From the sequence record MT478991.1: a DNA stretch of 64,000 nt. One strand, given 5' to 3'. The stretch comes from Escherichia phage vB_EcoM_011D4. The notes beneath the pieces are model-generated. The model saw only the letters and a program-made list of their open reading frames with translations. It was not told the origin of the DNA and ran no database searches. Shown piece after piece: positions 7,813-46,022 of this stretch. The position numbers and the translations under genes are program-made. The first letter of the stretch is position 1, and the number at the start of each line of letters is the position of its first letter.

Positions 7813-8022
7813 TTAACACCAATCAAGAGTTTTTGAGAAAACCTCTATCCATTGTTGAGTATATGCGGTTTCTTTCCATGACACAATACCAGTCGAATAA
7901 TGGTTTTTGTTTCCAGAAAAGGACGGGCATTTTGATGCATCTTCCATCATCTTTTCGGCGAACTCTGGTGCGTATACTCGCAAAATCTGTTGATATGCTT
8001 TGTATTCTTTAAATTTGCTCAT
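7813..8022 (-). CDS. hypothetical protein, paralog family C
   Basis: MSKFKEYKAYQ...; tandem to 7595-7810. Confidence 0.45.
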   Translation of the reverse strand: MSKFKEYKAYQQILRVYAPEFAEKMMEDASKCPSFSGNKNHYSTGIVSWKETAYTQQWIEVFSKTLDWC

Positions 8023-8287
8023 AATCATTCACTACCTTATCAGCTTCTTTTGTTGTTTTTACATCAACTGCGATAACTCGTAAAGGTTCGTCATGGTTCC
8101 ACCAGTGGTCATGAATATCGGCTTGTGATTTATCACCAAAGGAATCACGAATATCATTTTTACATTTATAGCTAATGTGACCGTCATAGTCAACATAAAG
8201 GTAATTATCGAAAATCGGCGTTTTTAAGATCATACCGAAAAATCTTTCTTTGTGTGTCTTATCCAGCGTTGCAGTAATTCGCATCAT
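8009..8287 (-). CDS. hypothetical protein, paralog family A
   Basis: Motif HDHWWNHDEPLRVIAVDV. Confidence 0.5.
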   Translation of the reverse strand: MMRITATLDKTHKERFFGMILKTPIFDNYLYVDYDGHISYKCKNDIRDSFGDKSQADIHDHWWNHDEPLRVIAVDVKTTKEADKVVNDYEQI

Positions 8288-42036: not shown

Positions 42037-42276
42037 ATGGTCTATAATATCGTCATTGGTGCTTTGTCTAATTTCGGAATGAAATTATTGTCAAAGTTAA
42101 TTAGTGAAAAGATGCTCACTAAAATTTTCTTCTATTGCGCTCGTCGTCTTGCGGCTTATACCAATACGCCAATTGATGATCGTTTTGTGGAAGAACTTTA
42201 TAAGGAGTTTAATAAAGATCAGTCAGAAGATAGCAACGAGCAAAATAAAAATAGTGATAGTCAACTACCTAAATAA
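42037..42276 (+). CDS. small protein with hydrophobic N-terminus (79 aa), in the position of gene 38
   Basis: RBS AAGGAGAAACGGCT; no similarity to recalled T4 gp38. Confidence 0.45.
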   Translation: MVYNIVIGALSNFGMKLLSKLISEKMLTKIFFYCARRLAAYTNTPIDDRFVEELYKEFNKDQSEDSNEQNKNSDSQLPK

Positions 42277-42309: not shown

Positions 42310-42966
42310 ATGCAAGTTTCTGAAAAAGGGAAAGACTTTGCTATCTCAAATGTCCTGCGCGCTATTTTCACAACTAAAAGCACGGAGTTGCTCGTACTTC
42401 GTGTTTTTGCTGCCGTCGTGTTGTCCATATTAGCATTTGTCGTTTATAGTAAAAACGAGTTATTTGCGCTTTATAAAGAGACTCGTTATGAGACTTATGC
42501 TCACGTTCTCCAGGTAGAGAAAGACCGCAATTTTGATAATGCAGCACAGGAGCAGTTACAGATAGTTCATGTGTCGGCTGATGCCGATTTTTCTGCTGTT
42601 TTTAGTTTTCGTCCGAAAAACCTAAACTATTTTGTTGATTTGGTGGCATATGAAGGAAAGCTACCGCATACAATCGATGAAAAAAATTTAGGCGGATTCC
42701 CTATCAATAAAACGAGTGAAGAATATCGTAGACATCTTTTAGGTAAATCCTATTTTACCGATAAAGATTTCCAGTATATTCCATCAAGAGAAAAGAAATT
42801 AGAGAGTATCGATATAGGGGTTATGTATTCTTGTCCTATATTCAATCTCGATAATGTCTATTCTGGTAGTATCTCCATTGCATGGAAGAATAAACCGGAT
42901 ATTGACATTGAGAATTTAGATACTCTTTGCAATCAATCTGCCAGAATCCTCGGAAGGATTAGATAA
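42310..42966 (+). CDS. t: holin T
   Basis: 218 aa; LQIVHVSADADFSAVFSFRPKNLNYFVDLVAYEGKLP and ICNQSARILGR closely match recalled T4 holin. Confidence 0.88.
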   Translation: MQVSEKGKDFAISNVLRAIFTTKSTELLVLRVFAAVVLSILAFVVYSKNELFALYKETRYETYAHVLQVEKDRNFDNAAQEQLQIVHVSADADFSAVFSFRPKNLNYFVDLVAYEGKLPHTIDEKNLGGFPINKTSEEYRRHLLGKSYFTDKDFQYIPSREKKLESIDIGVMYSCPIFNLDNVYSGSISIAWKNKPDIDIENLDTLCNQSARILGRIR

Positions 42967-42970
42967 CTTA

Positions 42971-43006
42971 AAGGGGAAGCCTTTCGGCCTCCCCTTCTTT
43001 TTTATT
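42971..43006 (+). terminator. terminator between convergent holin t and minus-strand operon
   Basis: AGGGGAAGCC-TTTC-GGCCTCCCCT (one mismatch) then CTTTTTTATT. Confidence 0.55.
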
Positions 43007-43250
43007 GACGCATAGACGCGCCTGAATCGCATTTTGACGCTGTATGATGAAAACATGTAGCGTACCAGTCATCGGCTTGTTTGTCTTCGTCAGAAAACGC
43101 GTAATTTCGTTGTATGCCGTTTTCTACTTTGACCAGTGCAATAGCTGTTTCTGGAAGATCAATCAATCGGACAAAATCACCATCTTCCCACTCTACACGA
43201 GCAATATCATAGCCCATCTCAAAGTATACAATCGCTTGTTCTAATTTCAT
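43002..43250 (-). CDS. small protein resembling the DUF2829 / Tad2-like phage family
   Basis: N-terminal pattern MKLEQAIVYFEMGYDIARVEW resembles MxFxEAL..GxKVRRxxW family; low confidence. Confidence 0.35.
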   Translation of the reverse strand: MKLEQAIVYFEMGYDIARVEWEDGDFVRLIDLPETAIALVKVENGIQRNYAFSDEDKQADDWYATCFHHTASKCDSGASMRQ

Positions 43251-43576
43251 TCTGGAAACTTCCCGTAAACATTCTCTGCCAACTTACGTGCATCTTTTAC
43301 AATATCTTTCATGTAATGACTATAATTTTTAGCTAGATCAATGATACAATCAACAAAGAAGTAATAGCGTCGCAGTGCTACCAGCTCAACATCTTCAAGA
43401 TGACCATTTTCTCCAATCGATGAAATATATTTAAATTCCTTTCGGATCGCGTCCATCGCTACATTAACTTCTTTTATAATATCTTTAGTATTATATGCAC
43501 CTCGACTAATCAAAATTTTGGTTATGTCTTCTGCTTTTTCGTGAAAGTTGTCAATTTCAAACTCGATCATAATCAC
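43247..43576 (-). CDS. hypothetical protein, paralog family F
   Basis: C-terminus ARKLAENVYGKFPE similar to ARIMTENIFGKF of 43685-44017. Confidence 0.5.
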   Translation of the reverse strand: MIMIEFEIDNFHEKAEDITKILISRGAYNTKDIIKEVNVAMDAIRKEFKYISSIGENGHLEDVELVALRRYYFFVDCIIDLAKNYSHYMKDIVKDARKLAENVYGKFPE

Positions 43577-43684
43577 CTCTCATAATTTCACGCTGTTGTT
43601 TCAACATTTTTTCGTGGTTTGCTAATTCTATACCTTGTAATAGCATAACCAGTGCAATTTTCAATGATTCATCATCTTTCATAA

Positions 43685-44017
43685 TCAAAATTTACCGAAA
43701 ATATTCTCTGTCATAATTCTTGCTTCGTCGATTATTTTCGTCATGTTCATGGTGTAGTTATGATCATTTAGTGCTTTAATAACAACGAGCAAGGAATCTA
43801 AAAACACTCGATACCGGGTATATTCTACGCTATTTGTGAATACCGATGTTTTCTCGACTTTATCGATCAGATAGCCTAAAACCGATAGCGCCTCGTTTAC
43901 TTCCCTTGTTACTTTATCGGCGCTAAACAACACCGGATAAAGACGCGGTGTGATTAACCGCGCTGCCTCTTTCAATTCGGTTGCTTTCCATGATTCATAT
44001 TTGTCATAATTAAACAT
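43685..44017 (-). CDS. hypothetical protein, paralog family F
   Basis: See 43247-43576. Confidence 0.5.
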   Translation of the reverse strand: MFNYDKYESWKATELKEAARLITPRLYPVLFSADKVTREVNEALSVLGYLIDKVEKTSVFTNSVEYTRYRVFLDSLLVVIKALNDHNYTMNMTKIIDEARIMTENIFGKF

Positions 44018-44964: not shown

Positions 44965-45252
44965 TTATTTTCGGTTGTGGTCACGATATGTTTTAAAATA
45001 TCCCTCGTACCACGGTAAAACATCTGGATTTTTACCACTATACAGACCTTTAACCATCATGTCAATAAGACCGTCCGGTGTTTGATAATTACCAGCTTTT
45101 ATAAGCTCTCTGATTAAAATTTCCCTGTATATGTCTTTCGGATCTTCGTAATCAACTTGTATCGTGGTTGTTGTCTCGCTTAATTTGGTTTCTGGAGTAT
45201 CTTGCATCGCCTTCCACCAATCTTTTGTAATCTTCATGTTATTGAATTGCAT
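44965..45252 (-). CDS. hypothetical protein (95 aa)
   Basis: ORF. Confidence 0.45.
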   Translation of the reverse strand: MQFNNMKITKDWWKAMQDTPETKLSETTTTIQVDYEDPKDIYREILIRELIKAGNYQTPDGLIDMMVKGLYSGKNPDVLPWYEGYFKTYRDHNRK

Positions 45253-45263
45253 AATTTAACCTC

Positions 45264-46022
45264 TTACTTGCAAACGTATTGATCTACATCAATTGCGCCA
45301 CCGAATGTAGGATGACGTTTTTCAAATCGAATAGTTCCGTCGTTTGGTTCGAAAACGGAGTATTCATATAGATCTTTCTTGCCAACATTCTTATAAAACC
45401 CGCCTTTAGTCATAACGGTTTCTTGTACGTTTGCTTTGTGTACGTTGTATTCATCAATGTATACAAAATCAACCATCTTCCCATTTTTAATGGTTACTTT
45501 AAGATCTCCTGGTTGATTTCCATATTTGGCATACAGTGGCGCTTCTTTAATTTTTGTGGAAATTCCATCTTTCATACTCCACTCATAACGAACGGTGCAT
45601 TGATAGGTAAAAGTTTCGACCTTCGGTTCTTCCACCACTTTTTCTTCCTGTTTCGGTTGTTCTTCGTCAACCTTCACAGAAGTCTCTGAATCGCTTTCTG
45701 ACGCGGTTTCTTCTTTAGGTAATACATTCATCAAGTTTTGGATTTGAGCGTTGTATACAGCCTCCAGTGGCTGAATCTGCCCGATATTGATCATTGTATC
45801 ACGAATAGTTTTATTCCAGTTGCGTTGCTCTTGTTTAAGAGACGGATCAATCTTAACAGCCTTAACATATACTTCATGAAGTTTCGAATCCAGCGCGGAG
45901 ATAGACTCGTTAGCACAAATAAACTTCTCTGATTTGGTAGTCGCTTTAGCGCAATCAAAGGACGCAGCGTTAGCACCGAAAGCAGTAGCAGAAAGAACGA
46001 TAGCAGCGATAATGTTTTTCAT
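45264..46022 (-). CDS. secreted protein with DUF1311 / LprI-like (lysozyme-inhibitor-like) N-terminal domain
   Basis: Signal peptide MKNIIAAIVLSATAFGANA; SFDCAKATTKSEKFICANESISALDSKLHEVY..QRNW matches DUF1311 pattern; promoter cassette upstream. Confidence 0.5.
   Translation of the reverse strand: MKNIIAAIVLSATAFGANAASFDCAKATTKSEKFICANESISALDSKLHEVYVKAVKIDPSLKQEQRNWNKTIRDTMINIGQIQPLEAVYNAQIQNLMNVLPKEETASESDSETSVKVDEEQPKQEEKVVEEPKVETFTYQCTVRYEWSMKDGISTKIKEAPLYAKYGNQPGDLKVTIKNGKMVDFVYIDEYNVHKANVQETVMTKGGFYKNVGKKDLYEYSVFEPNDGTIRFEKRHPTFGGAIDVDQYVCK

Follow-up and report, generated by a model that had tools for sequence, protein, structure and literature searches.

A predicted minimal, strongly acidic Tad2-like (DUF2829) protein encoded next to the holin gene in Krischvirus phages

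The present analysis indicates that a small gene of Escherichia phage vB_EcoM_011D4, located on the 64,000-nucleotide stretch of record MT478991.1 that was analyzed (the window), encodes a protein of the Tad2-like (DUF2829) fold family that is minimal, with a core of ~66 residues, and strongly acidic. A first-pass annotation had proposed here an 82-residue Tad2/DUF2829-like protein downstream of the holin gene and had seen in it a candidate anti-defense sponge. The reading frame and the sequence given for it are correct: 82 codons, opening with ATG, specify MKLEQAIVYFEMGYDIARVEWEDGDFVRLIDLPETAIALVKVENGIQRNYAFSDEDKQADDWYATCFHHTASKCDSGASMRQ, on the minus strand, a point which that annotation had not stated (Table 1). 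The best explanation of the gene is that it is a conserved but dispensable Krischvirus accessory gene, in a region of small genes between gene 52 and t that is the counterpart of the T4 early asiA–motA region. For its product we tentatively favor, with a probability of about 0.42, a divergent, acidic, minimal Tad2-fold protein serving as an anti-defense accessory factor and stoichiometric binder of a noncanonical ligand. By analogy with the characterized Tad2-fold proteins, it would act without catalysis and as a small homo-oligomer, and it would bind and sequester a host factor, blunting a defense. The sequence indicates that this ligand would not be the canonical 1''–3' gcADPR held in the canonical way, and suggests a re-specified site for another ligand, possibly a cationic or metal-ion-bridged one or a basic protein surface.

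Table 1. Features of the Tad2-like gene, its product, and its flanks, in window coordinates
Feature	Position	Strand	Remarks
Tad2-like protein CDS, 82 aa	43002..43250	-	Stop codon 43002-43004; homolog of RB49p255 / NP_891826.1; PF11195 27.9 bits; phrog_1048 E 5e-19
Folded core, aa 1-67 (predicted)	43050..43250	-	Helix 3-11, strands 14-18, 26-31, 37-43, 46-49, helix 54-58, strand 62-67; AF2, Foldseek
C-terminal tail, aa 68-82	43005..43049	-	Poorly conserved, predicted disordered, pLDDT < 50; Klebsiella relatives lack the tail and end in ...DWICF
Loop β1-β2, aa 20-25, EWEDGD	43176..43193	-	Equivalent of canonical GWNGK(N) ligand loop; W kept, N to E, G to E, G to D, K to G
Segment aa 50-56, YAFSDED	43083..43103	-	Equivalent of canonical W-x-x-S-Q-T-D ligand motif; W to Y, S kept, Q to D, T to E, D kept
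Upstream gene, 109 aa, phrog_9457	43247..43576	-	Its stop overlaps the Tad2-like ATG as ATGA
GC-rich hairpin between convergent t and Tad2-like gene	42970..42997	.	Folding energy; "terminator" features annotated at the same spot in several Krischvirus records
Best sigma-70-like promoter, candidate early, for gene string 44941->43002	45037..45065	-	TTGACA-17-TATAGT, 11/12; consensus scan alone

The proposed family assignment was borne out. The PF11195 profile (Tad2-like, formerly DUF2829) matches residues 1–63 at profile positions 1–71 of 73, significantly (E = 3.4e-6) and with 27.9 bits against a curated gathering score of 25 bits. The match is nonetheless marginal, as canonical members score 83–101 bits; relatives in the acidic clade to which the protein belongs score 16.8–26.5 bits. 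Among the 10 members of this clade, the protein and four others exceed the gathering score, and all 10 match at E < 1. In hhalign comparisons of the acidic clade with 109 canonical Tad2 homologs, a set that had SPO1 Tad2 as its seed and samples the family incompletely, the whole domain was aligned with probabilities of 76–89% (E = 2.4e-5 to 2.5e-6). R18, W21, D56, D61, and W62 do not vary among the 119 sequences of the combined alignment (109 canonical, 10 acidic), and they are the family-wide R of β1, W of the β1–β2 loop, motif D, and C-terminal DW. An AlphaFold2 monomer model built from these 119 sequences has a pLDDT of 84.6. Because canonical Tad2 makes up most of that alignment, a control model was made from the 10 acidic-clade sequences alone, with canonical Tad2 left out; it has the same topology (pLDDT 83.0). 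When either model was compared with the PDB by Foldseek, the top 12–15 matches were exclusively SPO1 Tad2 and Myroides Tad2 (TM 0.65–0.78, rmsd down to 1.6 Å), and the next match after the Tad2 chains had E > 0.1; in BFVD, nearly all matches of the model were "Thoeris anti-defense 2-like" domain proteins. Structure prediction thus returned the Tad2 fold, as the first-pass annotation would have it. Searches at the level of sequence were empty: PDB chains queried with the protein and with a four-sequence profile gave no match, pairwise BLASTP with SPO1 Tad2 gave no alignment, and NCBIfam gave no match to the protein. The relationship to Tad2 is therefore seen by profiles and structure only. A consensus-like DUF2829 sequence was used solely as a probe for retrieving the real Tad2 sequences of the PDB, and it carries no conclusion. 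Collectively, profile and model evidence provide good support for membership in the Tad2-like fold and family; with the BLASTP and PDB sequence searches empty, the protein lies at the extreme edge of the sequence family.

The best superposition is with Tad2 of Myroides odoratus (MoTad2; PDB 8V3E, 9EIB), which as a sponge sequesters His-ADPR and cUMP/cCMP (TM 0.77–0.78, rmsd 1.6–2.3 Å). MoTad2 keeps the GWNGK and W-T-P-S-V-S-D motifs and an A–C interface pocket for cUMP, whereas the phage protein lacks both the motifs and the insertion. SPO1 Tad2 (gp34.65; PDB 8SME/8SMF/8SMG, 8WJE) superposes with TM 0.66–0.77 and an rmsd of ~2 Å. Like the model, it consists of an N-terminal helix, an antiparallel β-sheet, a short C-terminal helix, and then the strand with ...DW; the two have the R, the W of the β1–β2 loop, the S, the D, and the C-terminal DW in common, and both are small, stand-alone phage proteins. 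The phage protein differs in having an additional disordered tail of 15 residues and in its β2–β5 insertion, which is ~6 residues (DLPETA) compared with 24 in SPO1 Tad2, where it bears helix α2, part of the dimer interface, and 41 in HgmTad2. The SPO1-type homotetramer is a dimer of dimers assembled via α1, α2, and β2; as modeled, the phage protein would keep α1, with the α2-bearing insertion cut down. HgmTad2 and AcrIIA7 (PDB 8KBI-8KBM, 9KZR) belong to the same Pfam family and are tetrameric binders of anionic nucleotides or RNA.

The would-be ligand pocket sets the protein apart from these relatives. In SPO1 Tad2 the main ligand contacts are W25, N26, W73, and D79, with further contacts from T78, I63, T65, D67, H71, and S76 (10.1101/2023.05.01.538930); in HgmTad2 the equivalents W21/N22 and S90/T92/D93 bind gcADPR (PMC10680739). 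In an ungapped alignment, which MAFFT and hhalign reproduced, three of the 10 SPO1 residues are kept (W25 as W21, S76 as S53, D79 as D56), and the other seven correspond to E22 (N26), Y50 (W73), E55 (T78), V40 (I63), V42 (T65), N44 (D67), and R48 (H71). In addition, SPO1 G24, G27, K28, and Q77 correspond to E20, D23, G24, and D54. The W–N pair of the gcADPR sponges is thus absent, its N being E22 here and E, D, or V across the clade, and the W-x-x-S-x-T-D motif is replaced by Y50-A-F-S53-D54-E55-D56. In the SPO1-seeded canonical set, 109 of 109 sequences have the N, W, S, Q, D, and K, and T/S is found in 108. As a sequence proxy for the charge of the pocket, the net charge of three segments (residues 20–25, 40–44, and 48–56) is −6, within a range of −5 to −8 in the clade (n = 10), compared with −1 to +1 in the canonical set (n = 109) and 0 in SPO1 Tad2. 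Also missing is the insertion of 35–41 residues that forms a second pocket in the long-insertion proteins HgmTad2, SptTad2, and MoTad2.

These features make it improbable that the protein is a canonical Tad2, that is, a homotetrameric sponge for 1''–3'/1''–2' gcADPR or cyclic di- or mononucleotides that inhibits Thoeris, CBASS, or Pycsar in Escherichia coli. Such a role would accord with its family and fold, with W21, S53, and D56 at the positions of SPO1 W25, S76, and D79, and with an aromatic residue, Y50, at that of W73; moreover, Thoeris was inhibited by four of the five diverse Tad2 homologs tested in the original study (10.1101/2023.05.01.538930). It is opposed by the replacement of N26 and T78 by E, Q77 by D, K28 by G, T65 by V, and H71 by R, at positions of which the N, T/S, Q, and K are present in 108–109 of the 109 canonical sequences, and by the acidity of the pocket segments, unfavorable for a diphosphate ligand. 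The insertion with which HgmTad2, SptTad2, and MoTad2 build the pocket for cyclic dinucleotides (cGG/cGAMP in the 41-residue insertion of HgmTad2) or cUMP is not there, and the Pfam score is 28 bits rather than the 83–101 bits of canonical members. Of the sponge first proposed, the fold therefore stands, and the gcADPR or cyclic-nucleotide ligand is not supported, given the divergent motifs (EW-E-DG and Y-A-F-S-D-E-D), the acidic pocket, and the missing second-pocket insertion; on sequence grounds, binding of the known Thoeris signal is improbable.

The charge of the pocket bears on other ligands as well. In each characterized activity of the Tad2 fold, a homotetramer binds RNA or an anionic nucleotide (gcADPR, His-ADPR, N7-cADPR, cyclic dinucleotides, cUMP/cCMP, tracrRNA), the known sponges have positively charged interprotomer pockets in common (PMC12265669), and the groove in which AcrIIA7 binds tracrRNA carries positive charge (PMC13133391). 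Since the known ligands are anionic and their pockets neutral or positive, the rebuilt, acidic pocket of the clade is hard to reconcile with canonical function, and it argues against any anionic nucleotide ligand. No positive K/R groove of the AcrIIA7 type (K58, K66, K71, K93, R101) was found in the protein, which is acidic or neutral at the corresponding loop, lacks the insertion, has a core with a net charge of −9.5, and carries G24 in place of the GWNGK lysine. The clade-invariant residues W21, D23, Y50, S/T53, D54, and D56 map to the position of the Tad2 pocket, and their conservation there is more in keeping with a re-specified site than with decay. The ligands of the family are known to have diversified widely, and 19 of 84 tested sponge homologs inhibited none of seven systems (PMC12393519). 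Positions 22 (E/D/V) and 55 (E/S/D), in contrast, vary within the clade and so may make no specific contacts.

The nearest relatives beyond the T4-like phages are Klebsiella proteins (e.g., UVX30944.1 of phage VLCpiP4a; P0009, P0011-P0015), which are likewise acidic and have the W-x-D loop and a Y-x-x-T-D-x-D...DW motif. They differ in lacking the C-terminal tail, in being encoded next to tailspike genes, and in matching PF11195 with 17–26 bits, mostly below the cut-off. One extension of the favored interpretation, which we regard as unlikely in this specific form, is that the Krischvirus and Klebsiella proteins are a distinct acidic "mini-Tad2" clade in which the W-x-D plus Y-x-x-[ST]-D-x-D pocket would sequester a cationic or metal-bridged signal of an uncharacterized enterobacterial defense, or a basic defense protein. 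If this is true, the protein would offer a handle by which the signal or system could be found, with E. coli and RB49 as a tractable model.

The genomic setting is that of a small nonstructural gene. The Tad2-like gene is the last member of a minus-strand string of small ORFs, and its ATGA overlap with the preceding gene implies cotranscription and possibly translational coupling. Holin gene t (42310-42966, plus strand; Pfam Phage_holin_T, E = 3e-60) converges on it. The earlier description "downstream of holin" is consequently right as to position and wrong if taken to mean a common unit: the Tad2-like gene is on the opposite strand, outside the holin operon and in a transcription unit different from that of t. 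The hairpin between the two has a folding energy of −16.8 kcal/mol on the plus strand and −23.2 kcal/mol on the minus strand (z = −2.8 and −5.6; 0 of 200 shuffles fold equally well), and it is likely a bidirectional terminator that ends both units. No terminator-like site was found between the best sigma-70-like promoter and the Tad2-like gene, no T4-type late promoter (TATAAATA) was found near the gene, and a local HMM scan of the window revealed no further ORF of the Tad2 type. In the annotation of RB49 the cluster lies between the DNA topoisomerase gene 52 and t, and one neighbor (RB49p259 note) resembles a T4 ORF of the asiA–motA region, which in T4 is early. We infer early expression from this genome position; the sites found in the sigma-70 consensus scan were in total not above the shuffled expectation.

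Both the location and the composition of the protein invite a different role for the fold, that of an acidic inhibitor or nucleic-acid mimic that binds and blocks a basic DNA- or RNA-binding host defense protein, such as a restriction enzyme or other nuclease, in the manner of Ocr and Arn. The whole protein has a pI of 4.46 and a charge of −8.3, compared with −4 for SPO1 Tad2 (the rounded value here being −8) and a canonical median of −1.4; the core alone has a pI of 4.08, and the clade pI is 4.05–4.47 in 10 of 10 members. Its region corresponds to the T4 asiA–motA region, in which, we presume, arn is located. However, the strongly acidic surface of Ocr/Arn-type proteins mimics the phosphate spacing of DNA, whereas our comparison is one of composition alone (pI and D+E content), and 16 D+E in 82 residues, a fraction of ~20%, is a moderate content by the standard of DNA mimics. 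In addition, the clade-specific residues that are best conserved gather at the former ligand pocket and are not spread over the surface. Such a re-use of the fold is conceivable but rather unlikely.

The gene is highly conserved among close relatives. The window derives from a Krischvirus (RB49-like Straboviridae): 58 phage records, all Krischvirus, match the 3.3 kb around the gene at 90–99% identity, and tblastn finds the Tad2-like protein in 58 of these 58 region-matching records at 97.6–100% amino acid identity. The 56 annotated records call it hypothetical or "phage protein," and RB49p255 (NP_891826.1) is a "hypothetical protein." In three metagenome or SRA assemblies, on Krischvirus-like contigs, a GATTGATT repeat has lost 4 bp, which cuts the protein to 40 residues (P0006); the site of the deletion, seen on comparing L011:1501-1623 with window 43150-43165, is a GATTGATTGAT repeat, and the other differences from this allele are mainly synonymous. 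The truncated allele has two possible origins, a null mutation in nature or a slip that recurred in assembly or sequencing. On the first of these readings, its presence in three assemblies would make the gene dispensable.

Identity of at least 97.6% in 58 records, syntenic homologs, mostly synonymous differences, and a Pfam match above the gathering score together indicate that the ORF is more than chance, and sequence comparison indicates that the gene is under purifying selection. It is thus very improbable that the protein is a relic, a decaying Tad2 homolog with no current function, even though the loss of the canonical pocket, the marginal Pfam score, and the truncated allele could be read in that way. 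Besides the conservation in 58 genomes, relatives at 49–59% identity keep the reading frame with its start and length, the clade has an invariant motif of its own, and the prediction of the fold is confident.

When 1.8 billion representatives were searched exhaustively with phmmer, only four genuine relatives emerged, one 98% identical (P0001), one 59% (P0004), one 49% (P0005), and the truncated copy (P0006). P0004 and P0005 come from metagenomes and are syntenic homologs that have the MKLEQA start in common with the protein. P0005 belongs to another T4-like phage, in which gene 52 is followed by small ORFs and then by the Tad2-like gene, which is convergent with holin T and gp38; preservation of the string of small minus-strand genes from gene 52 to t at this distance is supporting context for the favored reading of an anti-defense accessory protein. 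Scanning of viral contigs with a clade profile gave two Krischvirus contigs and nothing more. Four further phmmer matches were rejected. P0002 is not a true variant: it follows the protein for 58 residues and then continues as the opposite-strand translation of the same locus, its C-terminus …DKITVFPFYTSNIITHLKINNRLF corresponding to the plus-strand ORF …DKITIFPLYTSNIIAHLKVYNRLF at window 43044-43244 (+), which marks it as a probable fold-back assembly chimera. P0003, P0007, and P0008 are long FN3-type repeat proteins whose E values of 1e-9 to 1e-14 are sums of six to eight weak repeat matches to residues 16–52, and they are false positives of repeat summation.

The next-nearest relatives are the Klebsiella phage and prophage proteins, of 68–72 residues and 29–44% identity (hhalign 95.6%). 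In the prophages (L008-L010, gene 8001-8216) the gene lies directly 3' of an 897-residue tailspike gene, with which it shares base 8001, and ahead of a holin/endolysin cassette, and in the N4-like Klebsiella phage VLCpiP4a (L002:2453-2659) it lies between two tail-protein genes. In Klebsiella elements, this small acidic gene may travel with tailspike modules. A position directly after tailspike genes is untypical of early anti-defense genes and argues against the anti-defense reading. It could instead point to a tail- or adsorption-related accessory, for example, a helper of the tailspike or tail fiber: this closest outgroup overlaps a tailspike gene or sits between tail proteins, and the Krischvirus gene adjoins the tail-fiber/holin module. 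Yet the copies in Krischvirus and in the L007 phage are on the opposite strand, in the cluster of small nonstructural genes that extends from gene 52; a terminator separates the Krischvirus gene from the late genes, with no late-promoter motif nearby; and accessory "moron" genes, too, are commonly found after the tail genes of prophages. A tail function thus appears quite improbable.

Sponges of the Tad2 family have repeatedly led to new bacterial immune signals, namely, 3'cADPR and His-ADPR as well as N7-cADPR. The Tad2-fold protein described here is conserved and belongs to a classical model coliphage, and its pocket appears from its residues to be incompatible with all known ligands; it would therefore be a cheap, testable lead, which may reveal a new ligand or defense system or a recruitment of the fold for a nonsponge role. 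Should it be an ordinary or inactive homolog, the gain would be a better annotation of a "hypothetical" gene in the 56 annotated Krischvirus records. The Pfam assignment itself is already in public precomputed data, in which P0001 carries PF11195, and a function in "Thoeris anti-defense" should not be transferred from so marginal a match. Our literature search found no link between Krischvirus and Thoeris; the top-ranked matches for RB49/Krischvirus name neither phage, and the text of PMC12393519 mentions neither.

Several other small genes of the region were noted. The gene preceding the Tad2-like gene and a second one at 43685-44017 (minus strand) are diverged tandem paralogs; both match phrog_9457 (E = 2e-55 and 3e-43), their products are 37% identical across the C-terminal 43 residues by BLASTP, and between them lies a 43-residue ORF (43557-43688; RB49p256.1). 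On the other side of t, a small ORF at 42037-42276 (plus strand) lies between the distal tail-fiber gene and the holin gene. It corresponds to the RB49 dc5 region and phrog_402, its homologs in the related loci L007 and L011 match Pfam PF26925 (Phage_PM2_Gpl), and it has two nested starts in the RB49 annotation. Within the small-gene cluster itself, the gene at 45264-46022 (minus strand) encodes a protein of 252 residues whose N-terminus resembles a signal sequence (MKNIIAAIVLSATAFGANA) and which matches the LprI lysozyme-inhibitor domain above the Pfam cut-off (E = 4e-5); this protein may be secreted or periplasmic and lysozyme-inhibitor-like, with a possible relation to lysis control or superinfection.
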